64,000 nt of DNA from a virus (Duplodnaviria; Caudoviricetes), in IMG/VR virus record IMGVR_UViG_2565956830_000008, positions 20,953 to 84,952 of that record; one strand, given 5' to 3'. A program made the position numbers and the translations under genes. Positions 9,857 to 34,015 of the stretch are shown piece by piece (the stretch's first letter is position 1; every line of letters begins with the position of its first letter). Under the pieces are notes generated by a model. That model saw only the letters and a list, made by a program, of their open reading frames with translations. It made no database searches and was not told the origin of the DNA.

Positions 9857-12800
9857 TCAGTTCCCTTCCTGCTGCTGGGCAGCGGTTGCGGCGATCTCGG
9901 CGCGGAGGGGTGCGAGTCGCGCGGTGAGTTCTTCGAGTTCGGCGCGCGCGGCGGCTGCGCGCTCGGCTTCGCGGTCCTGGAGGGCTTGCGCGAACTGGTC
10001 GAGGAATGCGGGCTGGAGGAGTGCGGCGGTGACCTCGTCGACGGTGCTTGCGGTGAGCGCTTCGTCGCGGGCGCGGCCGTGCTCGGGTTCCGGCTCCCCG
10101 GCTGCGGCTCGCGGGGGTTCGCTGGCGGTGACCTCGTCGATGGCTGCCGCAGCCGCGGTGAGGGCGAGGTTCGACCGGTCGATGACCGTGGCAGCGGTCA
10201 GCGGCGAGGAGTGTCCCGGTACCGGCACGGACAGGACAGCGCGGAGCTGCCAACGCCCGTCGCTGCCCTGCGTCATGTGGTACGAGGGCTGGCACGCCTG
10301 GAACACGGTGCGATCCCACGGGGACAGCCAGGGTGCTGCCGCGCCGGAGAACCACAGGCCGCCCTCGTTCATGCCGACGGTGACGACCGCAGCAACGGTG
10401 CGCGTGTCGTCGAACTGGCAGACGGCGCTCTCGCACTCGTAGCCGTCCCGGTGATGGCCGACGTTCATCGTCATCGCACCGGCGCGGACCTCGCTGCCGT
10501 CGTCTAGGCGGAACGCGGCGCGAAGGAAATGGGAGAAGTCCAGTCCCCGCGCGGCGAGCTTCTCGATGGTGACCTTCCGGCCATGCGAGGCATGCGGTAC
10601 ACCCCGCTGCGCCACCCAGCCGTAGGCGCGGCCGTCGACGATGTGGACGCCGCCGCTCCCGGGCGGGAGTTCCTCGGGGGTGGGCTCGCGGAACCATTCG
10701 GCACGCATGGGCTGTTCGGCATGCATCACCTGCCAGGCGGAGGCGACGATCTGGGCTCCGCGCTCGTCGTACAGGGCGTCGAGTGCGGCAGATGCCGTCG
10801 CCTCATCGCTCCACGGCGGTTGGATCGTGTCATCGTCGAAGGCCTTCGCGAGCTTCTGGTACAGCGTCTCGACGCGGGACCTGACGGCCTTGCGGTCGTC
10901 GTCCGGGAGGTCGACGCCGCCCATCGAGCCTTCGAGGACATCGGCTGCCGCGTACACGCCGTCGGCGACGATCTCCAGGCGCTGCGTGTCGCCGTCGGTG
11001 AACACGTCCGCGAAGGGCAGCTTGTAGGCGCCGGCCGTGGCCGGGTCGGCGGCGTCATCGCGGTACAGGAAGCCCTGGCCCAGCTTGTCCGCGTCGACGT
11101 CGCCCTTGTCGTCGGTGGCCCAGGCGAGGATGCGGGACGCCGCCTTGCTGCCGTCCCAGGCTGCTTCCGCATCGTCGTGCACGGGCAGGTCCGAGTCACC
11201 GAACGCGGCGGCCGTGACCTCGCCCTCGGGCAGCGTGGAGGCACCCACGTACAGGCCCCGGGCGAGCCGTACGACGGTGCCAGCCTCGATGGCGCGGGCG
11301 AGATGGCTGTGGACCGTCTCCAGGGCCATGCCGAGCTTGTCGGCGAGGTGGCGGGGGCCGACCGGTGTCGGGGAGGAACGCACGTAGGTGACGAGCCGCT
11401 CGTGACTGTCACCCGAGGCGGCCACCAGTACGGGCGCGGACGCGGTCTGCTCGCCGGGCGGGTCGAGGACGATGCGGGCCTTGTCGTAGGCGGGCATCGA
11501 CACGAGGGTGGCCCCACGCAGGCGGGCGCGGGTGATCCTGACGAGGAAGTCCCCGGACTTCTCCTCGTGGAAGACGACGCCCTCGCCCGGGTCGGATTCG
11601 CCGGCGGCCGCGGTGAGCTGGTTGCCGAACACGCGGCGCGCGGTCGCGGCCGAGATGGTTCCGCCGGGGCTGGTGAACAGCATCGTCGTGCGGGCGCTGT
11701 GCGCCATTTCGACGCCCGACGCGGTCCACTCTGCGCGTTCCCGGCCGCTGATCATCCACGTGCCGTCGTCGAGGCGCATGACGCTGGCCGACGCGAACGA
11801 CGCTGCCAGGACCGGGATGTCGGCCTCGTCTTCGCCGGGGGTGGCGGTCGTGTCGACGAGTTGCACGTCCACGTCGTCCAGGTCCACGGACACACCGAGC
11901 GGGGCTCCCTGCTCCAGCAGGAGGACGGCGTCGAACCCGGCGGGCTGCGTCAGGTACAGGCCGCCGCTGCCGGTGATGTCGTCGCCTCTGCGGCCGAGCT
12001 TCTGGATCGACCCGGCCAGCTCGGCGCCGTCGTGGCCCTGCCCCATGGCTTCCGCGTACTGGAGCGGCCACGGCCCTGCACCGTCCCAGTACAGGGCGCC
12101 GCGGGTGAAGATCCTGCCGTCGCCGGTCTGCTGGTTTTCGAACGCGAGGGCGGCACCGTCGGGGGTGGACCAGGTACGGACCGGCGGCGGGGCTGTTTCT
12201 GCCTCTGCCTGGACGGGGGTGGCCATGGGGGGTTCCTCCTCTGCAGGGCCGAGCGGGATGTCGAAGTGCTCGCCGGCGAATGCGACGCGGACCCGGTCGA
12301 AGGTGACGGGGCCAACGCGCCCGACCAGGTCGTAGAAGCGCTCCGCGGCGGCGCTGTAGATCGCGGTCACGTGGGCATGCCACGGCGTGTGCTGCTCGGG
12401 GATATCGGGCAGCTCCGCGTAGGCGTCGGTCACGGCGTAGAGGGCGGCGACGTGCATGTCGTGCAGCGTCGGCGCGGACGGGTCGCGGTCCTCCCGGTCG
12501 TCGCCCATGTTCCACACCCACACGGGTTCGTCGCCGTGCGGGTTCCAGTGGGCGGCGCCGAACGCCCGCGCCGCCACAGGCGCGGTGCCCGCGTACTCGC
12601 GCATCGCCGCGACGAGGGCGGCGCGCTGCTCCTGGTTCCAGTCGGCGCCCTTGCCGAGGAACACGAGCGTGCAGTGCAGGTCCTCGGCCGACTCGCCACC
12701 ATCCACGGCCAGGCGCTGCGCGTCCTCCTCCGTAGGGAGCAGCGCGATCATCGCCCCCGTGTGCTGGGAGGCAGCGGCGGCCACTTCCCTTGGATTTGAA

Positions 12801-13615
12801 AATCCGGCCGTGGAGGCTTCCTGAGTTCCTGCGGCTGCGGTGCGCCGTTCTGGCGCCAATCGCAGGGTGCATCGGCAGTTGACGGTGAGCTGCGGCGGCG
12901 CAGTGGGGTCGCCGGGATAGTCCATCGCGACGCCGCCGACAGCGAAGGCCTCATCCAGCAGCCGCAGTTGACCGTTGACGTCCTTGTGGGTGTCGCGAAC
13001 CTTCGTGTCACGCCGGGTCAGCCACTGCTTGACGAGGGGCCGGTCCGGGCTGGTGAGGTCCTGCGCTGCGGCCAGCGTGGACGCGTTCCACGCACGAGTG
13101 GATTCGGTACGGGCGATGCGTTCCTCACGGGTCTCGCCGAGCTCGGCACCCGCACGGGAGAACAGGCCACGCAGCCGGGTGCGGAGCTGGTCGATGTCCT
13201 CGCCCGCGTCGCGGCCGGCAGCAAGCTCGGCGACGGCCGCCGCGGTGAGCCGGTCACCGACGGCGCGCAGCAGGTGCTCGGTGTCGGTGACGTACGAGCC
13301 GAGCGAGGCGGGCAGGTCGTCCCCACGGTCGTGCTGGCCTGGGAGGTCTTCCCACCCGTCGGGCAGCTCGGAGTTGACGTCGTCGGCGGCCTGGTGGGCT
13401 GCGGTCTCGGCGATCCCGAGGAGCCGCCGCATGATGCGCGGCACCCTGGCGGTCCACATGCGGCCGATCCGGGAGAGGGAGAACCGAGCGGCAACGATCT
13501 CGCTGGCGTCGCCAAGTCCCCTGCTGATCTCGGCCGCTACCTCGTCGAGGACAGCCCGCACTTCCTCGGCGACCGCCTGCTCGGCGGCCTGGAGCTGCTG
13601 TTCGACGTCAGCCAC
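9857..13615 (-). CDS. Head morphogenesis polyprotein: MuF + 2H phosphoesterase + capsid maturation protease with winged-HTH insertion
   Basis: RIARTE, KQW...VRDTH, NCRC (MuF); HCTL and HVTA (2H); TGDGR, GHDGA, GVSVDLD, GATLVSMPAY (protease-like); HTH LADKLGMALETVHSHL. Confidence 0.85.
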   Translation of the reverse strand: MADVEQQLQAAEQAVAEEVRAVLDEVAAEISRGLGDASEIVAARFSLSRIGRMWTARVPRIMRRLLGIAETAAHQAADDVNSELPDGWEDLPGQHDRGDDLPASLGSYVTDTEHLLRAVGDRLTAAAVAELAAGRDAGEDIDQLRTRLRGLFSRAGAELGETREERIARTESTRAWNASTLAAAQDLTSPDRPLVKQWLTRRDTKVRDTHKDVNGQLRLLDEAFAVGGVAMDYPGDPTAPPQLTVNCRCTLRLAPERRTAAAGTQEASTAGFSNPREVAAAASQHTGAMIALLPTEEDAQRLAVDGGESAEDLHCTLVFLGKGADWNQEQRAALVAAMREYAGTAPVAARAFGAAHWNPHGDEPVWVWNMGDDREDRDPSAPTLHDMHVAALYAVTDAYAELPDIPEQHTPWHAHVTAIYSAAAERFYDLVGRVGPVTFDRVRVAFAGEHFDIPLGPAEEEPPMATPVQAEAETAPPPVRTWSTPDGAALAFENQQTGDGRIFTRGALYWDGAGPWPLQYAEAMGQGHDGAELAGSIQKLGRRGDDITGSGGLYLTQPAGFDAVLLLEQGAPLGVSVDLDDVDVQLVDTTATPGEDEADIPVLAASFASASVMRLDDGTWMISGRERAEWTASGVEMAHSARTTMLFTSPGGTISAATARRVFGNQLTAAAGESDPGEGVVFHEEKSGDFLVRITRARLRGATLVSMPAYDKARIVLDPPGEQTASAPVLVAASGDSHERLVTYVRSSPTPVGPRHLADKLGMALETVHSHLARAIEAGTVVRLARGLYVGASTLPEGEVTAAAFGDSDLPVHDDAEAAWDGSKAASRILAWATDDKGDVDADKLGQGFLYRDDAADPATAGAYKLPFADVFTDGDTQRLEIVADGVYAAADVLEGSMGGVDLPDDDRKAVRSRVETLYQKLAKAFDDDTIQPPWSDEATASAALDALYDERGAQIVASAWQVMHAEQPMRAEWFREPTPEELPPGSGGVHIVDGRAYGWVAQRGVPHASHGRKVTIEKLAARGLDFSHFLRAAFRLDDGSEVRAGAMTMNVGHHRDGYECESAVCQFDDTRTVAAVVTVGMNEGGLWFSGAAAPWLSPWDRTVFQACQPSYHMTQGSDGRWQLRAVLSVPVPGHSSPLTAATVIDRSNLALTAAAAAIDEVTASEPPRAAAGEPEPEHGRARDEALTASTVDEVTAALLQPAFLDQFAQALQDREAERAAAARAELEELTARLAPLRAEIAATAAQQQEGN

Positions 13616-17201: not shown

Positions 17202-18794
17202 CTACCGGCCGATACGGCGCCCGTACGGGGACGCCGGCCGGTTCGGCTGCACACTGCCCGGTATGCCGCTGCGGGCGCCGCCCTGGGGGGCCTGCGCGAG
17301 CGGGGCGTGGACGATGGCGCCCGCGTTGGCCTCCGGGATCAGCCCGTACACGAGGACACAGGAGGCGTCGATCCGGCCCGGCGAATCGGGGTCCGTGGGC
17401 TGCCAGGTCGACCACTCGCGTTCCATGTCGGGGAACAGGCCACGGAAGCGGACCTTGTCCTGCACCATCTGCTGGGCGATCGGCTCCGCCCGCAGCAACT
17501 TCCCCTGCTTGGCCCGCACCGGCAGGATCGCCGGCATGAGGACGTTCTTGGGTATCTCCTCGTCCCGCTGGAGCTTCTCCCACGACGTCTGGATCGCCAA
17601 CACACACATGTCCCGGCCGAAGTTCCACTCGACGTAGATGATCGACGCGTTCGTGCGGTACGCGAGCCGACAGGCGGCCATGGACCACTCGGCCGACGAC
17701 ATCGGCGCCGACACGTCGTCGGTGATCCACACGCGGCCGTCGTCGCCGAGGAAACCACCGATGACACCGGCAACGTCCCGGCCGCCACCCGACGGGTCGA
17801 TCGACACGGCGATCTTCTGCGGCTCCACGGGCGTGGTGGTGTCACGCAGCAGGCGCAGCAGTTCCTCGGACACAAGCGCTCCTTCACCAGGCTGGGGGTC
17901 GCCCTGGTAGAGGGCGTGCCAGTCCCGGACGATCGACGTTGCCTTCTTCTGCGCCCACCACGCCTTCAACCTGGCGACGGCCCGGCTGGGGATCTTCGGG
18001 TGGGGCAGCGGCTCCCCGGGCTCGCGGCCGAGCGGGTCCTCGCCGAACTTGGGGTCGGCGACCGCGGGGAGGTGGATCACCTTCCACCGGCCGCCGTCCT
18101 CGATGCGGCCCTCTTCCTGGATACGGCGCCCGGCGAAATCGTCGGGGTGCCAGCGGGTCTGGATCGCCACCACGGCGCTGCGGTCGGGCTGGAGGCGGGA
18201 CAGGGCCGCCGAGCTGTACCAGTCGTGCAGGGCACGCCGTGCGGCCTCCGATTCGGCGTCGGCGCGGTCCTTGTGCGGGTCGTCGATGATCAGAAGGTTC
18301 ACGTCGAAGCCGGTGAGGCCCTTGCCGACGGACACTGAGCGGCAGCCGCCGCCCGCGGTGACCTCCCAGTCCTGCATCGCCCCGGAGCCGGGCTTCATCC
18401 GCAGCTCCCACTCGTCGCCGTACTCCTCGACGTAGCCGCGGATCCTCTTGCCGCGCCGGAGCGCCAGGTCGTCGCCGTACGAGGTGACCGCGACCTTGTC
18501 CACGGGGAACGTGCACAGCCACCAGAACGGGAACCACTCCGCGACCGTCGTGCTCTTCCCGACCTGGGGCGGGGTCAGGATCAGCAGCCGGTCGTACTCG
18601 CCCCGCCCCACCTCGGCCAGCGCATCGCCGATGAGCTTCAGGTGCGGGCGCATCCGGAAGTTCCGGTCGAGGCCGCGGGCGAGCGTCACCGGATCCCGCA
18701 GCAGGTCAGCGCTCATCGCCCGGCGTGCCGCCTCCAGCTGCCGGTAGACCTCCTCGTCATCCTGGTGTGCCAGCTCGTCCACGGCCGTCGTCAC
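17202..18794 (-). CDS. terL: Terminase large subunit
   Basis: Walker A PPQVGKST, Walker B LLIIDD, QTRWH..D, nuclease SIDPS and terminal SPGRIDA. Confidence 0.95.
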   Translation of the reverse strand: MTTAVDELAHQDDEEVYRQLEAARRAMSADLLRDPVTLARGLDRNFRMRPHLKLIGDALAEVGRGEYDRLLILTPPQVGKSTTVAEWFPFWWLCTFPVDKVAVTSYGDDLALRRGKRIRGYVEEYGDEWELRMKPGSGAMQDWEVTAGGGCRSVSVGKGLTGFDVNLLIIDDPHKDRADAESEAARRALHDWYSSAALSRLQPDRSAVVAIQTRWHPDDFAGRRIQEEGRIEDGGRWKVIHLPAVADPKFGEDPLGREPGEPLPHPKIPSRAVARLKAWWAQKKATSIVRDWHALYQGDPQPGEGALVSEELLRLLRDTTTPVEPQKIAVSIDPSGGGRDVAGVIGGFLGDDGRVWITDDVSAPMSSAEWSMAACRLAYRTNASIIYVEWNFGRDMCVLAIQTSWEKLQRDEEIPKNVLMPAILPVRAKQGKLLRAEPIAQQMVQDKVRFRGLFPDMEREWSTWQPTDPDSPGRIDASCVLVYGLIPEANAGAIVHAPLAQAPQGGARSGIPGSVQPNRPASPYGRRIGR

Positions 18795-19394: not shown

Positions 19395-19606
19395 GTGGCC
19401 CGTTCCTCCCGTCGTGCGGTGCCTTCGTAGCGGTAGAGCCATAGGGGGCCGTCGTCTGCCGGGTTCACGTGACGCCGGTAGACGAGTCGGTAGCCGTCGG
19501 CGTTGCGGAGCTCGCAGGTGTGGGGCGGGTTCCAGGGGTCTGCGGGGATGGCGAGGAGTTGCCCGTCGACGGGTCCGCCCGCGAACTGGATGCCGACGCT
19601 GCTCAT
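19391..19606 (-). CDS. Small hypothetical protein (71 aa, MSSVGIQFAGGPVDG...)
   Basis: ATGA overlaps at both ends. Confidence 0.7.
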   Translation of the reverse strand: MSSVGIQFAGGPVDGQLLAIPADPWNPPHTCELRNADGYRLVYRRHVNPADDGPLWLYRYEGTARREERAT

Positions 19607-20532
19607 GACGGGTCGCTGGGGACGTGGTTGGGTCCGGAGAGGTATTCGCCGGCGAGGCGTTCGAGGAGCCGCCAGCCCTGCCCCTGCTCGATCTCGCCTC
19701 GGCCTTCTGCGGCTGCGATGGCCTTGTTGATCGTGACGGCCGCGGGTGCGGGCAGGGTGCGGGCGCCGAGGACGGTCTCGAGTCCGACGTGCCCGGAGTG
19801 GAGGTGGGTGCCGTCGGGTGCGGTGTAGCCCTCGGCGAGTTCGTCGAGGTGGCGCTCGACGATGGCGAGGATGGCGTGGAGGGCGGTGGCCACGTTGCCG
19901 ACCTTGTGCGCGGCATGTGTCGAGGCGAGCGTGTCCAGGGTCTGCTCGTAGTCGGCGCGTGCGGCGAGCCAGGACTCGTTCTGCCCGAGGCGCGCCTGGT
20001 TGAAGGCTTCGCGGGCGGCTTCGAGCTCCATGGGCAGGAAGATCAGGCTCACGGTGGCGAAGTCGAGGTTCGCTTCGGAGAGGCCTTCGGGGCTGACCTC
20101 GGCGAGGAGCTGGAGCTGTGCGTCGTCGAGGCCGGAGTAGGCCCGCCAGTCGACGTCTTCGATCTGGTCGTACAGCTGCTGGAGGGTCGCCGGGTCGTCC
20201 TTGCCGGTGATGGCGTTGTGCGACAGCTGCCGGGCGATCAGCTGGTCCTTCTCCTGCGGGTCGTCGATGAGCAGGCAGGTGATCTCGTCGAGTCCGGCTT
20301 CCACGGCCGCGTCGCACCTGTGGTTGCCGGACACGATGAGCTCGGCGCCCTCCGGGTATTCGCCGGCCCCGTAGATGAGCGGGACGGAGGTGAGGCAGCC
20401 GTCGGCCTTGATGTTGGCAACGAGCCGGTCGTACTCCTCCTTGGTCTGGTAGTGCGCGTTGACGGCGAGGCGGGTGAGGGCGCGCGGGTCGCGCTGGACG
20501 AGGCGGGGCCGGATTCGACTGCTGGTGGTCAT
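19603..20532 (-). CDS. ParB/Srx-like N-terminal domain protein (modification/packaging-associated type)
   Basis: NAHY...L..NI..DG...P, IVSGNHR motif. Confidence 0.85.
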   Translation of the reverse strand: MTTSSRIRPRLVQRDPRALTRLAVNAHYQTKEEYDRLVANIKADGCLTSVPLIYGAGEYPEGAELIVSGNHRCDAAVEAGLDEITCLLIDDPQEKDQLIARQLSHNAITGKDDPATLQQLYDQIEDVDWRAYSGLDDAQLQLLAEVSPEGLSEANLDFATVSLIFLPMELEAAREAFNQARLGQNESWLAARADYEQTLDTLASTHAAHKVGNVATALHAILAIVERHLDELAEGYTAPDGTHLHSGHVGLETVLGARTLPAPAAVTINKAIAAAEGRGEIEQGQGWRLLERLAGEYLSGPNHVPSDPS

Positions 20533-21872
20533 CGCATGTCCTTGCCGTGCTTGGTCTTCCAGAGGGTGAGCGCTTCGATCAGGTCGTAGGCGCCGAGGGG
20601 ACCGCCGTACTGGAGCTGGTAGCGGTGGATGCCGTCCGCGCCCGGCTCGGTCCGCTTCTGCAGCTTCACGCCGGGGATGCCCCGCCCGTACTTCGCGCTG
20701 TTGGGCCGGTCGGTGAACGCGGTGGTGGCCCAGCCGTCAATCCGCTTCGACAGCGAGCGTTGGACGAGGAGCTGCGCCTCCTTCGTGGAGGCGGCCATCA
20801 CGATGAGCTTCGACAGGCGCCGGTAGCGGGTCCACGACACCGGGAAGTCCGACATCAGGTAGGCGGTGTTCGGGTCGAACTTGGGCGGCAGGTAGGCGAA
20901 CGCGCCGATCAGCTTCCCGTCGACCGCCACCCCGCACGCGATCAACGGGCTGCCGGGCTTGATCGTCTTCGACATGAACTGGGAGCGGATCGCCGCGAAC
21001 TGCCCGGCGTTGAGGACGTGCAGGCTCATGCGGTCGCCGAGGTCCTCGTTCTGCCCGATCTTCGGCATGGGGATCGGCTCGACGGGCTGCCGGGGGCCGA
21101 CGATGCGGCGCGGCCCGGCCGCCGCGTACACGTAGATCGGCAGGCCGCGGTTCGCGGTCTGGACGACGCCGGCGAGCTTGTCCCGCAGCTCGGGGCGTTC
21201 GATGTGCAGGCCGAGGACCCAGTTGGGCCGGTCCTGGACCTGCTCGATGATGCGTTCCTTGCCGTCCTCGGTGAGCTCGTCGAAGGCTGGCTCGGGCCAG
21301 TTGAACGCGGCGTCGATGGACGCGAACTGCGCCTGGTAGTCCTTCGCGTAGAACGGCGGGAACATCACCACGGGGGCGTCGGCGGGCACCTCCTGGTCGA
21401 GGTAGTCGCGGACGTCGCCGGCGAAGAACGAGCCCAGCTTCGTTTGCAGGCCGCGGAGCTTGCTGGCGGTCTTGTCGTGCATCCGCTCCCACTGGTCGCG
21501 GGTGGCGTCCATCATCCGCCGGTAGTAGGCGCCGTCCTTGCCGACGTACTGGAGGAAGCGGGTGCCGAGCATGAGGGTGGCGAGGAGGTCGGTGCGGTCC
21601 TCCAGGTAGGGCTTGAGCCAGCCGAGGGACTCCTCGTACTCCTCGCGCAGGGTGTAGTTGAGGTCGTCCCCGGCGAGGTACCAGCCGAGGGCGCACGAGT
21701 ACGCCTGGATGTCGTTGCCGTGGACGCGGCGGGAGTCGCCGAACCGGGCGTGCAGCACGCGTTCGATCGTGAAGTTTCCCGAGCAGCCGACGTAGATGTC
21801 TTCGCCGGGCCACGTCCCGGCGTGCTCGTAGATGATCGAACGGAGGGGCGCGGGTATCGAGCCGTGGAACAT
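20529..21872 (-). CDS. Degenerate Dam-like Rossmann domain fused to GNAT (Mom-like) domain; putative DNA-modification/antirestriction protein (447 aa)
   Basis: AGGAG RBS before ATG 21872; YVGCSGNF (motif I), GND (II), FPPFY (altered IV); C-terminal VDGKLIGAFAY...YLMSDF...RRLSKLIV...TTAFTD...SAKY fits a GNAT pattern. Confidence 0.75.
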   Translation of the reverse strand: MFHGSIPAPLRSIIYEHAGTWPGEDIYVGCSGNFTIERVLHARFGDSRRVHGNDIQAYSCALGWYLAGDDLNYTLREEYEESLGWLKPYLEDRTDLLATLMLGTRFLQYVGKDGAYYRRMMDATRDQWERMHDKTASKLRGLQTKLGSFFAGDVRDYLDQEVPADAPVVMFPPFYAKDYQAQFASIDAAFNWPEPAFDELTEDGKERIIEQVQDRPNWVLGLHIERPELRDKLAGVVQTANRGLPIYVYAAAGPRRIVGPRQPVEPIPMPKIGQNEDLGDRMSLHVLNAGQFAAIRSQFMSKTIKPGSPLIACGVAVDGKLIGAFAYLPPKFDPNTAYLMSDFPVSWTRYRRLSKLIVMAASTKEAQLLVQRSLSKRIDGWATTAFTDRPNSAKYGRGIPGVKLQKRTEPGADGIHRYQLQYGGPLGAYDLIEALTLWKTKHGKDMR

Positions 21873-21955: not shown

Positions 21956-21984
21956 GGCCCTCCCCGGGGACTGCGGGGAGGGCC
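21956..21984 (-). terminator. GC-rich hairpin just 3' of the tRNA (processing signal or partial terminator)
   Basis: ggccctccccg...cggggagggcc 11 bp stem, about 8 nt from CCA; no U tract. Confidence 0.45.
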
Positions 21985-21991
21985 AATCGTG

Positions 21992-22066
21992 TGGAGCGCC
22001 GGCCAGGGCTTGCACCTGGATCGCCCGACTGGAAGTCGGGCCGTGTTGCCTTACACGCACCAGCGC
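21992..22066 (-). tRNA. tRNA-Gly (anticodon TCC), atypical T- and D-arms, encoded CCA
   Basis: GCGCTGG TG CGTGT AAGGCA ACACG G CCCGA CTTCCAG TCGGG CGAT CCAGG TGCAAGC CCTGG CCGGCGC T CCA: all four stems pair; G1-C72, C2-G71, G3-C70, U73 Gly identity elements. Confidence 0.93.
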
Positions 22067-22108: not shown

Positions 22109-22154
22109 ATCTTACCTCAGCTCCACCGGGTGCGCAGTTCGCAGCAGTGCGCAG
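22109..22154 (-). promoter_or_regulatory. Candidate late promoter for tRNA-modification-terminase operon
   Basis: - strand CTGCGCACTGC starting 40 bp upstream of TAAGAT (-10-like), identical geometry to 15935-15980. Confidence 0.55.
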
Positions 22155-22204: not shown

Positions 22205-23146
22205 TCAGCCCTGCCAGCAGGCGACGGCTTCGACCCGCGAGGACCGCTCGGCCTCCGCGATGATCTCGGCCATGGACAGGTCGTTGCGGAAGCGGTGCCC
22301 GATCTTCTCCTCGATGCGGGCCAGGCGGGCGGCGGGCTCCGGGTTGAGCTGAGCCGACAGCACGAGCGCCGACTTGGACGCGAGGACGCAGAACATGCAG
22401 GACAACCTTGGCATTCCGGCGAGGTATGCCGGGTGTTTGCGCAGGCCGGACGCTTCGACGGCCGCCCACACGTCGACGGTCGACCAGGTGTGCACCGGAT
22501 ACCAGACGTCGACGTGGCGGAGGGTGTTCGAGGCGCCCCAGCCGGGGCCGACGCCCTTCGGCACGGGCTGCTTGCGCGCCTTGTACTTCTCGGCCTTGGC
22601 CCGACGCGGTACGCACGCATCGCAGGGACATGTCCAGGCGCCTTCGTGGGTGAAGGCGAGCAGTTTGCGGCGGGCCGGGGACTCCTCGGCGCGTATGCCC
22701 ATGACGTTGAGGATGCGGACGCGGCCGGTGTGCCCCGCCTCTCGTGACTCTTGGACGAGGCGGGTCATCAGGGTCCGCACCGGGCCGCGCTTGAAGTCCG
22801 ATGTGCACCAGCGGTTGTCGGCGTCGGGGAACATGCCCCGCTCTTCGATCCGGTCGATGAGGTCGCCGCCCGTGCGGGCGACGACTTCGAACCGCAGCCC
22901 GTAGTAGGCGGCGTGCTCGGCGGCCAGCTCCTTCGTGCCTTCCCACTCGGCGGAACCGAGGTCGGCGTGCACGCACACGATGCGGTCGAGGACGTCGGCG
23001 TCGCGCGCGGCCCAGAACAGCTCGTAGAGCATCGCGATCGAGTCCTTGCCGCCCGAGATGTTCGCGATGATCCAGTCGTACGAGGCGAGGTCGGGGAGGT
23101 CCGACCCGAAGCCGGGCAGGTCGAATGCCAACTGCGCCGTAGACAT
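22205..23146 (-). CDS. PAPS reductase-family (PP-loop) protein
   Basis: ISGGKDS, RWCT..FK..P, GIRAEES..R, RLSCMFC. Confidence 0.9.
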   Translation of the reverse strand: MSTAQLAFDLPGFGSDLPDLASYDWIIANISGGKDSIAMLYELFWAARDADVLDRIVCVHADLGSAEWEGTKELAAEHAAYYGLRFEVVARTGGDLIDRIEERGMFPDADNRWCTSDFKRGPVRTLMTRLVQESREAGHTGRVRILNVMGIRAEESPARRKLLAFTHEGAWTCPCDACVPRRAKAEKYKARKQPVPKGVGPGWGASNTLRHVDVWYPVHTWSTVDVWAAVEASGLRKHPAYLAGMPRLSCMFCVLASKSALVLSAQLNPEPAARLARIEEKIGHRFRNDLSMAEIIAEAERSSRVEAVACWQG

Positions 23147-26230: not shown

Positions 26231-26320
26231 TGATCTACATTCATTCTTCCAAAATGAGCTTGCCCTAACCAGTTTTGTGAACCCTATTCGGCAAAAGAAC
26301 TTCTAAGAAGCCGCAGGTCA
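26231..26320 (-). repeat. Repeat R2
   Basis: tcattcttcc...cttgccctaaccagtttt...aaaagaacttctaagaagccgcaggtca. Confidence 0.9.
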
Positions 26321-28042
26321 GGCGGCCAGCTCGTATCGGCTGATCGGCTCGCCCGTGATGGCTTCGACCAGCGCGCAGTACAGGACCTCAGCCACGGCCG
26401 GGGTCACCGCGTTGCCGAGCTGGCGGACCTGGTGCCGCTTCGAGCCCATGAGCTTGTACTTCGCCCTGAAGGCCATCGCCCTCGCGATCTCGTGGGGCTG
26501 GAGCATCCTGAACAGCACGTCGTCGATCTTGAAGTCGCGGCGGACCAGTGCGTACCGGTCGCGGGTGGGGAGCGCGCCGATCGGGTCGGTGACCGGCCGG
26601 GCCTGGCCGTTGCCGTAGTACGGGACGAGCAGGTGGTCAGGCTGGGTCACGAGCCCGTGATGGTTGCCGCCGGCCGTGACCGAGTGAAGCGGCATGCCGA
26701 GGTGCCGCGCCTTCTCCTTGTCGCCGCCGCCCCGCATGGGGATCACGAACGGCAGGTAGGCGAGGGCGGTCTCCAGGCGGGCCGTCTGGGTGCGCAGCGG
26801 GTCCTCCAGCCGCATGGGCTTCTTGCCGTCGCGGCCCTCGCACGGAATCAACAGCGGCGGGAACACGATGCCGTCGGTCTCCACGGTCGTCCGGGTGGGC
26901 ATCGGCAGGTCCAGGCCGATGGCCTTCTCCCGCCAGGTCCCGCCGGCCGGGACGAGGAGCGGGCCGCCCGGCATCCCCTGGGGTGCCTCGTCGACGTCGC
27001 CAAAGAGCGAGCCCTGCCCGTCGTCGAAGAAGTCCTCACCCCAGCCCCAATACTTGGCGCCTCCGGCCCGCACGCGGGCGATCGTGGCGGGGGCGAGGCC
27101 CTCGGGGCAGTCGTCGGTCTTGGACCGGTCGCCGATCGGCGTTCCCGCGATCGAGAAGTCGATGGCGGCCGCGGCGGGGAGCACGTAGGGCTCGACGATC
27201 GCGCGGCAGCCCGAGCGCGGGCAACGGAAGTCGTAGCTCTGCCGGTAGCGACCCATGTCCCGCTTCGGGTCGCGGAAGACCTGGACGGCGCGCACCTGTT
27301 CGTCGCAGTCGGCGCACCAGGCGTCGGGGCGCAGGACCCACTTGTCGAAGTCGGGGTCGCGGCCGAGGCTCTCGTGCCAGTACACGAAGTACAGGCGGTC
27401 ACGGCTTTGCGGTACACGGTCCAGGGTGCGCGGGACGACGTGCATCGAGTTGATCGCGAGGAGCTTCGTCCGGTACCCAAGCTTGTGGAACTCGCCGACC
27501 CACCGATCCCATTGGTCCCAGCCCCGGCAGTCTGTGACGTTCTCGACGACTCCGGCCAGGACCAAGCCGCCGCGGTTGATCACGCCCCGCAAATACATGG
27601 GGACTTCTTCCATGAGGGCGCGGCTGCGCTCCTCGGCGGCCCGGCGTTCCTTGTCGCTCTTGAACTCCGGCTCTTCGAAGTCGAAATCGCCCTGCATCGT
27701 GCGGTCGAAGTCGACCTTCACGCCCCGGGCCGCCGACCACTTCGGGCACTCCGGCGACGCCCAGAAGAGCTGGCAGACCGGCCACTTCTCGACCGGGGCC
27801 CGGCGGATGTCGCCCTTCCACAGGTCGCAGTTCGGGTTGTTCCACGCGTGCGTGGCGAGTGCGACGTCCCAGTGGTTCGCGCCTCTGGTGGTCAGCACGC
27901 CGGGGACCGCGTCCGCTCCCTGCGTGTCGCCGCCAGCACCGCAGAACCAGCTCATGGCGGTCAGCACGCTGCCGTCGTGCTTGTAGGCGCGGGCCGGACT
28001 GGCGGATGCCCAGGCGCGCGTGGTGGCGTCGATGTAGGGCAT
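26318..28042 (-). CDS. C5-cytosine DNA methyltransferase
   Basis: FCGAGG (I), SPEC (IV), VENV (VI), QSRDR (VIII), QLGNAV (X). Confidence 0.93.
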   Translation of the reverse strand: MPYIDATTRAWASASPARAYKHDGSVLTAMSWFCGAGGDTQGADAVPGVLTTRGANHWDVALATHAWNNPNCDLWKGDIRRAPVEKWPVCQLFWASPECPKWSAARGVKVDFDRTMQGDFDFEEPEFKSDKERRAAEERSRALMEEVPMYLRGVINRGGLVLAGVVENVTDCRGWDQWDRWVGEFHKLGYRTKLLAINSMHVVPRTLDRVPQSRDRLYFVYWHESLGRDPDFDKWVLRPDAWCADCDEQVRAVQVFRDPKRDMGRYRQSYDFRCPRSGCRAIVEPYVLPAAAAIDFSIAGTPIGDRSKTDDCPEGLAPATIARVRAGGAKYWGWGEDFFDDGQGSLFGDVDEAPQGMPGGPLLVPAGGTWREKAIGLDLPMPTRTTVETDGIVFPPLLIPCEGRDGKKPMRLEDPLRTQTARLETALAYLPFVIPMRGGGDKEKARHLGMPLHSVTAGGNHHGLVTQPDHLLVPYYGNGQARPVTDPIGALPTRDRYALVRRDFKIDDVLFRMLQPHEIARAMAFRAKYKLMGSKRHQVRQLGNAVTPAVAEVLYCALVEAITGEPISRYELAA

Positions 28043-30992: not shown

Positions 30993-32165
30993 TCAGGCGG
31001 CGGCCTCGGCGTCCGGGTTGACGGTCAGGCCGCTGGCGCGGACCTCGGCGACCATCTCGGCCTTGCGGAGGTTCGCCATCGCCTTGGTCGCGATGTCCTG
31101 GAGGTGCTTGATGCGCAGGCGGTGACCGCCGATGCCGCCGGGGGTCCCGGCGAGCAGCAGGGCCAGCTCTTCCTCGTCGGTGGCCGCGAGCAGCGACAGG
31201 ATCTCTCCGGCCTGGCCCAGCTTGTCGATCTTCCCGACGAGCTTGCTGCGGTCGGCGACGATCCGCTCCCGCTCCTCCTCGGGGAGGTCGAGGGTGCCCG
31301 GCAGGGCGTCCTGCCCGTTGTCCTTGCGGGCTGCGGTCGCCTCCTCGGAGAGGACGAAGAACGATCCCTGGTCCTCCTGGCGCCTCTCCTCGTCGTGGAG
31401 GGCCTGCGCGAAGGCCTCCGCGTCGCGGGCGCTCTTGAAGTCGCCGCGCACCCAGCGGCCGAGGAACCGCACCTGGTTCTGGTTGGACAGCTTCCCGACG
31501 TACCAGGCGAGGCCGACCGGCAGCTGGTTCTTGACGAGGGCTTCCTGGGCCTCCGGGCACAGGCGCAGCAGGTCGATCCGCCACTGGACGTACGCGGCGC
31601 TCTTGCCGACCAGCTCGGAGACCTCGTCGACCGTGTAGTCGGCGTCGACCAGCTTCTTGAAGGCCTTCGCCTCTTCGACGGCCGTCATGTCCGCGCGGCC
31701 GACGTTCTCGGCGACGGCCATGGCAAACGTCTCGCGGCCCTCGCCGACGCCGTGCATGACGACGGCCTTCATCGTGGGGAGCTCGGCGATCTGAGCGGAA
31801 CGCCACCGGCGCTCACCCATGATCAACGTGTACCGCTTCGTCTCCGGTATGTACCGGACGGTGATCGGCTGGAGCTGGCCGAGCTTCTCCATGGACTTGG
31901 CCAGCTCGCGAAGCGCGGCCTCGTCGAAGTGCTCGCGGGGCTGACCCGGGTCGCGGTCGATCTTGTTGGTAGGGATCGTGCGGAGCTGCGTCCGCTGGCC
32001 GTCGCCGGCCTGCTGGGCGGTCTCCTTCTTCGCCGGGGCCGCCTTGGTCGCCTCGGTCGCCTTTCTCGCGGGCTTCTTCGCGGCCGGGGCCTTCCGCGCG
32101 GGCGCCTTCTTCGCGGGGGCCTCGGTGGCGGTCGCGGTGGTGGCCTCAGTGGCGGTGGCGGTCAT
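30993..32165 (-). CDS. ParB/RepB/Spo0J-family protein
   Basis: QPR..FD...L.ELA.S....G.LQPI.VR, GERRWR.A, EN..R.D, HTH; no parA in window. Confidence 0.92.
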   Translation of the reverse strand: MTATATEATTATATEAPAKKAPARKAPAAKKPARKATEATKAAPAKKETAQQAGDGQRTQLRTIPTNKIDRDPGQPREHFDEAALRELAKSMEKLGQLQPITVRYIPETKRYTLIMGERRWRSAQIAELPTMKAVVMHGVGEGRETFAMAVAENVGRADMTAVEEAKAFKKLVDADYTVDEVSELVGKSAAYVQWRIDLLRLCPEAQEALVKNQLPVGLAWYVGKLSNQNQVRFLGRWVRGDFKSARDAEAFAQALHDEERRQEDQGSFFVLSEEATAARKDNGQDALPGTLDLPEEERERIVADRSKLVGKIDKLGQAGEILSLLAATDEEELALLLAGTPGGIGGHRLRIKHLQDIATKAMANLRKAEMVAEVRASGLTVNPDAEAAA

Positions 32166-32196
32166 AGCGCGTCCAATCGCTAGATGTGGGGTGGTT

Positions 32197-32287
32197 TGAA
32201 CTACTTTCATTCTTTCCGAATCAACTTGCCCTAGCCAGTTTTAACAAGCTGATTCAGCAAAAGAACTTCTAAGAAAACCGCAGGTCA
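32197..32287 (-). repeat. Repeat R4
   Basis: tgaactactttcattctttccgaatcaacttgccctagccagttttaacaagctgattcagcaaaagaacttctaagaaaaccgcaggtca. Confidence 0.92.
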
Positions 32288-32968: not shown

Positions 32969-34015
32969 TCAGGCGGCCTTGGAGGCGGTGCTCACGAGTT
33001 GCTCGACGCGGCCGATGGCGTACGCGATCGCCGCGTTGGCCTGGACGTCGTCTCGCCGCTCGACCATGGCCCTGCGGTGCTCGATGGCCCGGGGCCACAG
33101 GTCGCCCTCATGGAGGGTGTCGCCGCAGGCGACCATGGCCTTCGCACCGAGGCCCCAGACGATCATGTTGACGGCGCACCCGGCCGCAGCGATGGGGTCG
33201 ATCTCCTGCGCGAACCACGTGTAGTTCGCGGGGTCCAAGCCCATGGAGCGCAGGTGCTGGGCACCGGACCGGAACATGCCGCCGGTGCCCGCGCACGGGT
33301 CGAGGAACGAGTAGCCGTCGTGGATCTCGCCCGGGTCCCGGCCGATGATCTGAGCGGCCATCATGTCGCAGACCTCCGGCGGGGTGTGGTACTCGCCGAG
33401 GCCCTCGCGGGCCGACTTGTGCCGCAGGTTGGTGACCGTCCAGGACATGAGGTCAACCCAGGTGTTCATCTCGGGGTCTGCGTGGCCGGTGTGGTCGAGG
33501 GCGTTGGCATCCAGGGCCGCGTGGAACGTGTCGCGTACGGCGTTCAGCTCCTGCCTGGTGATGTCCCCTTCCGCCCAGGAGAACAGTGCCGAGGCGGTGT
33601 CGATGAGGTCGGGGCGGCGCAACCACCAGTAGGCGGCGACCTCGCGGACACACTGGAGCAGTTGGGGGGCGTCAAGGCCGCGGAAGAACTCGGCCAGGGT
33701 GCGCGCGTAGCCCTTCTGCGGCCACAGGGCGAGGGTGGCGACGACGCCCATAGGGATCTCCATCCGTGTGCCGCCGTAAGCGCGGTACCAGGCGGACGAG
33801 ACGGCCTCACCGAAGGTGGCGCCATCGGCGGGGTTCAGCGTGTACTCAAGACGGCGTCGGCGCTCGGGACGCTCCGGGGTGCTGGCCGGCTGCGGGGGCT
33901 TGGGCGGGGCAGGCGCCCACTGGCCCGCCGTCGGCTTGGGGAGAGTGATCGAGGCCTGGGGCTTGGGGGGTTCCGGCTCGTTGCCGAGCTCGGCGAACAG
34001 GTCGAGTTGCTCCAC
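32969..34015 (-). CDS. N-6 DNA methylase-like protein lacking visible catalytic motif IV
   Basis: GEYHTP, DPCAGTG, QEID, GDTL, then ends without NPPY/F. Confidence 0.82.
   Translation of the reverse strand: MEQLDLFAELGNEPEPPKPQASITLPKPTAGQWAPAPPKPPQPASTPERPERRRRLEYTLNPADGATFGEAVSSAWYRAYGGTRMEIPMGVVATLALWPQKGYARTLAEFFRGLDAPQLLQCVREVAAYWWLRRPDLIDTASALFSWAEGDITRQELNAVRDTFHAALDANALDHTGHADPEMNTWVDLMSWTVTNLRHKSAREGLGEYHTPPEVCDMMAAQIIGRDPGEIHDGYSFLDPCAGTGGMFRSGAQHLRSMGLDPANYTWFAQEIDPIAAAGCAVNMIVWGLGAKAMVACGDTLHEGDLWPRAIEHRRAMVERRDDVQANAAIAYAIGRVEQLVSTASKAA

Follow-up and report, generated by a model that had tools for sequence, protein, structure and literature searches.

The locus

We describe here a glycine tRNA gene, tRNA-Gly(UCC), that lies beside the gene for a two-domain fusion enzyme in a Streptomyces prophage of about 100 kb. 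The window, by which we mean the whole 64,000-nt stretch analysed (IMG/VR record IMGVR_UViG_2565956830_000008, positions 20,953 to 84,952), corresponds to C119:72082-136081 in an 11.76-Mb, 70% G+C genome. Nearly all window genes lie on the minus strand and are of phage type: terminase large subunit, portal, MuF-type fusion, DNA methyltransferases and ParB-like proteins. ARAGORN calls a single tRNA in the 64 kb, a tRNA-Gly(tcc) on the minus strand. The fusion gene starts 119 nt downstream of the tRNA and is followed by a ParB-like gene, and this kit of tRNA, fusion and ParB-like genes sits just upstream of the packaging genes (Table 1).

Table 1. Features of the tRNA locus and its surroundings, in window coordinates.
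Feature	Position	Strand	Basis
tRNA-Gly(UCC), 75 nt, encoded CCA	21992..22066	-	ARAGORN; Rfam tRNA 43.1 bits; own model R1 77.3 bits
Leader hairpin upstream of tRNA, arms CGGUCG/CGACCG, conserved loop	22073..22098	-	alignment of 17 upstream regions
11-bp G+C-rich hairpin in the gap between tRNA and fusion gene, no U tract	21956..21984	-	sequence; centroid fold
447-aa fusion protein: N-terminal methylase-like, C-terminal GNAT fold	20529..21872	-	frame by G+C at third codon positions (GC3) ~1.0; Pfam; models
ParB-like gene; start overlaps fusion-gene stop	19603..20532	-	phrog_7405 3.2e-61; weaker ParB-like PHROG matches
Terminase large subunit	17202..18794	-	phrog_38 1.1e-83; Pfam Terminase_6N

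Structure and detection of the tRNA

The acceptor stem of the tRNA reads G1-C72, C2-G71, G3-C70, C4-G69, U5-G68, G6-C67 and G7-C66, and is followed by U73 and an encoded CCA. The D stem has 4 bp (CGUG/CACG) closing the loop UAAGGCAA, with a fifth pair, U14-A21, possible; the anticodon stem has 5 bp and the loop CUUCCAG; and the variable loop has 4 nt. The T stem, CCAGG/CCUGG, gives the pairs C49-G65, C50-G64 and A51-U63, and the T loop, UGCAAGC, places G at position 55. Within the anticodon loop C32 could pair with G38 and U33 with A37, and a single-strand fold leaves an anticodon loop of 3 nt.

Much of this had been anticipated by the original prediction, made from the letters of the DNA, which placed a tRNA-Gly at exactly the coordinates that ARAGORN returns. 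It described intact identity elements for glycyl-tRNA synthetase (GlyRS), stems that all pair, a T loop UGCAAGC with G55 together with A51-U63, and a D arm able to form 5 bp, and our reading agrees throughout, with one wobble, U5-G68, among the stem pairs. The acceptor identity set of tRNA-Gly is G1-C72, C2-G71, G3-C70, U73, C35 and C36; all of these are present in the window tRNA, and they are invariant in 19/19 aligned relatives. The cloverleaf is also supported by covariation across 19 related phage tRNAs, in which 93.9% of cells are paired and 15 of 21 pairs show changes on both sides; none of 500 shuffles scored as high, and sliding the partners gave at most 45.5% paired.

The expectation that tRNA finders would score the gene low proved right for Infernal, in which the Rfam tRNA model RF00005 gives 43.1 bits (E 6.4e-8, in a 500-nt scan) versus 75 bits for the host's canonical tRNA-Gly(UCC) and 67.7 bits for a tRNA-Pro. 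The 43.1 bits exceed the curated gathering score of 29, and yet scanning the full 64 kb at the gathering threshold brought up no tRNA; the speed filters can discard unusual tRNAs. A blastn search of the phage collection with the window tRNA gave no match.

The tRNA is flanked by two hairpins. In the leader hairpin, 88.1% of cells are paired across 17 sequences, with changes on both sides in 2 of 6 pairs, and a TAAGAT hexamer lies near it at 22109-22114; a simple consensus scan found no sigma-70-type promoter at the locus. The leader loop has the consensus CUGAGCAGCGGCG and stands between a TAnnnT hexamer and the tRNA, and a matching stretch occurs in L153-L185. The second hairpin, in the gap before the fusion gene, could be a terminator, an attenuator or a processing site; it was not called in a terminator scan, and similar hairpins occur in relatives whose gaps are at least 115 nt long.

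Conservation of the gene kit

Homologues of the fusion protein form a large family, which counts 844 cluster representatives when E is at most 0.001. For the viral relatives we used a diverse-alignment scan and kept the best 80 of 158, at 33-96% protein identity. A tRNA-like gene accompanies the fusion gene at 57 of these 80 loci: our model R1 finds one at 56 loci (58 matches), ARAGORN at 54, and 57 is their union. The viral contigs are not independent, several being near-duplicates, and the 58 matches reduce to 51 distinct sequences. In 55 cases the tRNA-like gene lies upstream of the fusion gene, on the same strand and within ~360 nt; one lies on the opposite strand and one after the ParB-like gene. 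The types that ARAGORN assigns at these loci are all Gly (tcc, ccc, acc, gcc) or untypable odd loops with CC or GC, and no other isotype appears. A ParB-like homologue directly follows the fusion gene in 78/80 loci. Only 5/80 have the PAPS-reductase-like gene that the window shows upstream.

Two scans of IMG/VR gave 24 loci, 21 of which have an upstream tRNA-like gene (18 by ARAGORN, three added by R1). In the phage collection, fusion homologues occur in 15 records, five from Gordonia phages and ten from Mycobacterium phages: in Mycobacterium phage Jeon, at 43% identity, a tRNA-Gly(tcc) is annotated 36 nt upstream, and in Gordonia phage Jollymon an unannotated tRNA-like gene (R1 45.4 bits) stands there and an annotated ParB-like gene follows the fusion gene. 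Two viral contigs at 32% identity also carry an upstream tRNA-like gene (L189, and L190 with two tandem copies). Among 401 genomes sampled from the phylum, PF22559, the family of the GNAT domain, was found in two, this host (G000) and G493, a member of another actinobacterial family; the latter has an upstream tRNA-like gene (R1 40.7 bits) with a 4-nt anticodon loop, CCCC, and the T loop UGCGAAU. The deviant tRNA-like genes of L170, L181, L190 and L166 were missed by Rfam at E up to 1 and were found by R1.

Tandem pairs of tRNA-Gly-like genes stand ahead of the fusion gene at three loci (L190:1312-1470; L237:982-1130; L248:961-1124). The anticodons of the distinct kit-linked tRNAs include eight ACC (A34), one GCC and seven CCC, at loci including L220, L221, L244, L248, L260, L261 and L263. 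To our knowledge, the anticodon ACC, with A34, is not used by bacterial tRNA-Gly.

What the tRNA family keeps and loses

A structure-guided alignment of the 51 distinct tRNAs separates positions that are held from positions that vary. The acceptor end, GCG...CGC with U73 (that is, G1-C72, C2-G71 and G3-C70), is kept in 58/58 matches, C35-C36 in nearly all family tRNAs, and an encoded CCA in 37/51. At the positions of the T stem, G51-C63 is found in 1/51 and G49-U65 in 0/51. At position 55, 39 have U, nine have G and three have C; GG is present in the D loop of 21/51; and position 8 is not U in 10/51. The anticodon loop has 6 or 8 nt in 6/51, and there are loops of 4 nt in G493 and 5 nt in L189; in the seven-nt loops, U33 is replaced in 7/45 and a Watson-Crick pair between positions 32 and 38 is possible in 44/45. 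As read from this alignment, GlyRS identity is fixed, and what has become relaxed are the traits on which EF-Tu, the ribosome or the tRNA elbow depends.

The regular placement of the gene, upstream and on the same strand in 55/57 loci, would also be expected of a cis-acting RNA that directs the processing or stability of the enzyme's mRNA and is tRNA-like in looks only, and some copies are indeed too deviant for tRNA finders. We regard this as very improbable: a processing signal would have no need of invariant G1-C72, C2-G71, G3-C70 and U73, of nearly invariant C35-C36 or of a CCA encoded in 37/51.

Predicted EF-Tu binding and codon usage

Binding to EF-Tu was predicted from the T-stem values tabulated by Schrader and Uhlenbeck (PMC3239215, Table 2), which give -9.2 kcal/mol for the window tRNA. 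The host's canonical glycine tRNAs come out stronger, at -11.2 (UCC), -10.7 (GCC, three genes) and -11.2 kcal/mol (CCC). In the available text of PMC7826273, staphylococcal non-proteogenic tRNAs are placed at -9.6 to -9.7 kcal/mol and the mean of bacterial tRNA-Gly at -10.8 kcal/mol.

The simplest alternative is that the gene is an ordinary phage tRNA, supplementing the decoding of rare GGA (and GGG) codons in lytic growth. Phage-borne tRNAs are common, and the intact cloverleaf, 7-nt loop, U33 and encoded CCA of the window copy would all suit such a role. Codon usage does not: in open reading frames filtered at GC3 >0.85, in the prophage and host sets alike, GGA makes up 114/1701 glycine codons (6.7%) of the prophage versus 14402/186012 (7.7%) of the host, and 25/434 (5.8%) on the packaging and head side. 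A canonical tRNA-Gly(UCC) is already present in the host, the corresponding tRNAs of relatives have 4-, 5-, 6- or 8-nt loops or are without U33, and the location beside one enzyme gene is conserved. We therefore consider codon supply unlikely.

Both comparisons suggested alongside the original prediction thus gave the result that it favoured: the host's canonical tRNA-Gly(UCC) gene is intact and has the stronger predicted EF-Tu binding, and GGA is not enriched, the packaging and head side included. Its central proposal, of a tRNA that is chargeable and poorly bound by EF-Tu, so that Gly-tRNA is left free for a transferase, is likewise supported, by the predicted -9.2 versus -11.2 kcal/mol, by the adjoining GNAT fusion and by the pattern of the family.

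The fusion enzyme

Pfam divides the fusion protein into PF22555 (DAM-like-phage1, phage DNA adenine methylase-like domain 1; 5.5e-106) and PF22559 (GNAT-phage-like; 4.7e-57). The Dam motif is [DNS]PP[YFW]; in the alignment FPPF stands at this site, with both prolines nearly invariant. A fold search with the full-length model (pLDDT 95.5) returned mostly GNATs, and the N-terminal half drew only weak matches to Rossmann methyltransferases, so the label "Dam-like" rests on Pfam. A sequence search of solved structures with the fusion protein found nothing meaningful.

The GNAT domain was modelled with high confidence (pLDDT 95.7), and Foldseek matches this model to generic GNATs at E ~1e-6. With an exhaustive aligner, Mom of phage Mu (8bv8_B) ranks 3 among 48,161 chains, with Z 11.1 and a root-mean-square deviation (rmsd) of 2.9 Å over 139 aligned residues; this rmsd is the lowest among the ten best rows. 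Classical GNATs carry the acyl-CoA motif Q/RxxGxG/A. In the fusion protein, strand 336-344 and helix 353-361 are joined by a loop, VSWTRYRR, that holds no glycine.

A GNAT beside a tRNA gene may be related to it in other ways. The tRNA could be the enzyme's substrate, in the manner of TacT, or a decoy or replacement against host defences that target tRNA. GNAT toxins that act on aminoacyl-tRNA do exist, and the available text of PMC13219725 cites TacT with Gly-tRNA-Gly. Altered anticodon loops would fit escape from anticodon nucleases. The methylase-like fusion and the ParB-like partner (78/80 loci) point instead to DNA, loops of 4-6 nt could not replace a decoding tRNA, and no small partner of the toxin-antitoxin kind was seen. 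A substrate or decoy role thus seems to us improbable, to the same degree as codon supply.

Glycine tRNAs of the host and of Streptomyces chromosomes

The host genome has canonical tRNA-Gly genes for UCC (at C102), GCC (three genes) and CCC. It also has a second odd tRNA-Gly(UCC), at C156:77231-77301 among housekeeping genes, with the T loop UGCGAGG, A51-U63, a 3-bp D stem and a predicted EF-Tu binding of -9.6 kcal/mol. If a well-formed tRNA is taken as one with a 5-bp T stem and a 7-bp acceptor stem, this gene and the window tRNA are the only ones without U55 among the 91 genes that ARAGORN calls in the host.

A family of odd tRNA-Gly(UCC) genes on Streptomyces chromosomes is highly conserved, with G55, G49-C65, C50-G64, A51-U63, a 3-bp D stem and a C32/G38 pair. 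By a strict pattern, whose reversed control gave 0 matches, it occurs in 46/101 species genomes (L001, L021-L032, L033 onward), with 1 to 6 copies where present. The genes beside ten of these copies include no integrase and no common neighbour, and the flanks are varied and non-mobile. In one genome (L022; G076:C4:89425-92454) two copies lie 1.1 kb apart around a Methyltransf_11-domain gene. PF22559 is absent from all ten other genomes of the same genus that we sampled, and the odd tRNA was found in six of those ten by a looser pattern that also picks up chance matches in coding sequence and matched in its reversed control.

It is conceivable that the chromosomal odd tRNA-Gly is a cell-wall donor, and the host genome has two FemAB-family genes; an essential role is disfavoured by the patchy distribution. 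The same thought extends to the window tRNA, which might supply glycine to a host or phage cell-wall (Fem-type) transferase in staphylococcal style. Streptomyces peptidoglycan carries a glycine bridge, the traits of the window tRNA match those of staphylococcal cell-wall tRNAs, and the FemAB-family genes would be at hand; VanK and FemX work is among the references of PMC7826273. We nevertheless judge this very unlikely, since no Fem gene lies near the tRNA and the gene that is conserved beside it, in Mycobacterium and Gordonia phages too, encodes the Dam-like/GNAT fusion.

Proposed function

We propose, with a probability of roughly 0.6, that the window tRNA serves as a private source of glycyl groups for the adjoining GNAT enzyme, which would act like Mom of phage Mu. 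The host's GlyRS would charge the tRNA, whose identity positions are all kept. EF-Tu and the ribosome would use the charged tRNA poorly, because of its weak T stem, the loss of U55 and an anticodon loop that is able to close; Gly-tRNA would therefore stay available, and the conserved gene order suggests the GNAT domain as the recipient of its glycyl group. By analogy with Mom, the methylase-like domain would present an adenine in DNA, to which the GNAT domain would attach the glycyl group, so that phage DNA is marked before packaging. The substrate or decoy role, the cell-wall role and the cis-acting RNA fit less well with an enzyme fused to a Dam-like domain, with its ParB-like partner and with identity positions that are fixed.

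Several observations weigh against a private donor and lower the confidence that we place in it. The window copy itself retains a 7-nt anticodon loop, U33, U8 and G18-G19, and because of this it may still decode GGA and GGG. G55 occurs in just 9/51 distinct family members, and the combination of G55 with A51-U63 is not tied to the enzyme alone, because the chromosomal family has these traits where the enzyme is absent. About a quarter of the loci (23/80) give no tRNA match, so the enzyme does not need a private tRNA; two of these 23 have <120 nt of upstream sequence, and one has a tRNA 786 nt upstream (seen in L187). Co-transcription of tRNA and enzyme is not certain, because a strong hairpin separates the two. 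The predicted EF-Tu binding of -9.2 kcal/mol falls inside the overall range of the host's tRNAs, -8.6 to -11.2, and derives from a table for E. coli and T. thermophilus factors, not actinobacterial ones, that covers three base pairs only.

The limits of the enzyme's likeness to Mom belong among these points. In the exhaustive structural comparison generic acetyltransferases match as well as Mom does, rows from Z 10 to 11.4 being ties, and Mom is not among the Foldseek matches listed for the GNAT-domain model. The Mom family PF25680, which scores 253 bits on Mu Mom itself as a control, does not match the fusion protein at Pfam E up to 10, where only PF22555 and PF22559 appear, and hhalign gives the GNAT domain and Mu Mom a probability of 0.6%, that is, no sequence relation. 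By its sequence, the GNAT domain is outside the Mom family.

Beyond the donor role of the tRNA, we tentatively suggest, at a little less than even confidence, that the kit is a self-contained DNA-writing system. A tRNA insulated from translation, a methylase-derived reader and a GNAT would together attach a tRNA-borne amino acid to adenines of the phage DNA before packaging, independently of the host's tRNA pool. If the identity of the tRNA sets the amino acid that is written, related kits could write different marks.

Setting within the prophage

Two full tRNA-Lys(UUU) genes in direct orientation, at C119:36761-36835 and C119:136287-136362, stand ~99.5 kb apart with phage genes between them; they differ at 3 aligned positions, and the second lies ~200 nt past the window end. 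The pair look like attL and attR hybrids. Because these genes bracket the region, we place the prophage at a tRNA-Lys site, with the tRNA-Gly internal to it. This bears on a further explanation, that the tRNA-Gly is kept for tRNA-dependent lysogeny or is the relic of an attachment site. Lysogeny of this kind is documented in actinobacteriophages, according to the available text of PMC10865867. Here, the tRNA-Lys genes form the boundaries, the tRNA-Gly lies mid-prophage between phage genes, and the host's tRNA-Gly(UCC) at C102 and odd copy at C156 are both intact; the explanation is the least probable of those that we considered. A tyrosine-integrase match lies at C119:33793-34335, just outside the left tRNA-Lys copy.

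The prophage has other genes of DNA-modification type, all on the minus strand, at 22205-23146, 26318-28042, 30993-32210 and 32969-34015 of the window; their types are PAPS-reductase-like, C-5 cytosine methylase, a second ParB (ParB_N and HTH_ParB) and an N6_Mtase-domain protein. The window ORFs that were scanned gave no match to DUF488. In a 1252-aa protein at 9857-13615, also on the minus strand, a head-morphogenesis region of portal/MuF type occurs together with matches to PHROGs that are labelled RNA ligase and head maturation protease; the protein may be a large multi-domain virion component.

Comparison with known systems

A private glycyl donor for a DNA-modifying GNAT would have its closest functional counterpart in Mom. 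As described in the available text of PMC13219725, Mu Mom is a GNAT that moves glycine from Gly-tRNA-Gly to N6 of adenine in double-stranded DNA and accepts any E. coli isoacceptor. The phage enzyme resembles Mom (PF25680, 8bv8) in being a phage-encoded GNAT fold, in its implicated glycine tRNA and in its late, packaging-side position. The two differ in architecture: Mom consists of one domain with an HTH-like insertion and works with any of the host's tRNA-Gly isoacceptors, whereas the putative enzyme here is a fusion of a GNAT with a methylase-like domain, has a ParB-like partner in 78/80 loci and usually has its own tRNA.

The tRNA, for its part, resembles the staphylococcal cell-wall tRNAs. 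Those have A49-U65, U50-A64 and A51-U63 according to the available text of PMC7826273, and they lack U55 and G18-G19 according to that of PMC13443448. The staphylococcal traits named in the original prediction are thus confirmed for A51-U63 and for the missing U55, but the letters "GUGC", which it gave in place of GUUC, were not found in the available parts of these texts. The window tRNA shares with staphylococcal cell-wall tRNA-Gly the UCC anticodon, the kept GlyRS identity and the coexistence with a canonical tRNA-Gly(UCC); it likewise lacks G49-U65, G51-C63 and U55, has A51-U63, and has a possible extra pair by which the anticodon loop becomes shorter. It differs in keeping G18-G19 (in the loop UAAGGCAA) and a 4-bp D stem, in having C49-G65 and C50-G64 instead of A49-U65 and U50-A64, in being phage-borne, and in its linked enzyme, a Dam-like/GNAT fusion and not a Fem transferase. 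As far as the available texts of those two papers go, the features relaxed across the phage tRNA family form the same list as those of the staphylococcal cell-wall tRNAs.

More distant comparisons are FemX of Weissella, L/F-transferase, MprF and PacB, which also use charged tRNA off the ribosome and which PMC13219725, in its available text, groups in the GNAT superfamily. Their acceptors are unlike those proposed here, being peptidoglycan precursors, proteins, lipids and natural products, and none of the four is among the fold-search matches listed. We know of no aminoacyl-tRNA-dependent transferase that has a dedicated phage tRNA. With ordinary phage tRNAs the window gene shares its setting, a single tRNA gene in a temperate actinobacteriophage; it differs from them in that there is no codon enrichment, the attachment site is a tRNA-Lys and features for translation have been lost in the family.

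In the full-text literature we found no account that pairs a phage tRNA-Gly with a Dam-like/GNAT fusion, the supplementary tables of PMC13219725, which hold mined Mom homologues, being outside the scope of that search; the available text of the same paper discusses isoacceptor use and mentions no dedicated tRNA. If our proposal of a private glycyl donor is correct, phage tRNA genes gain a function beyond decoding, and many actinobacteriophages, some of them easily grown (Mycobacterium smegmatis phage Jeon, Gordonia phages), would carry an uncharacterised DNA modification. The proposal would also join two known things: the non-translational glycine tRNAs of staphylococci and the Gly-tRNA-dependent DNA modification of Mu Mom.

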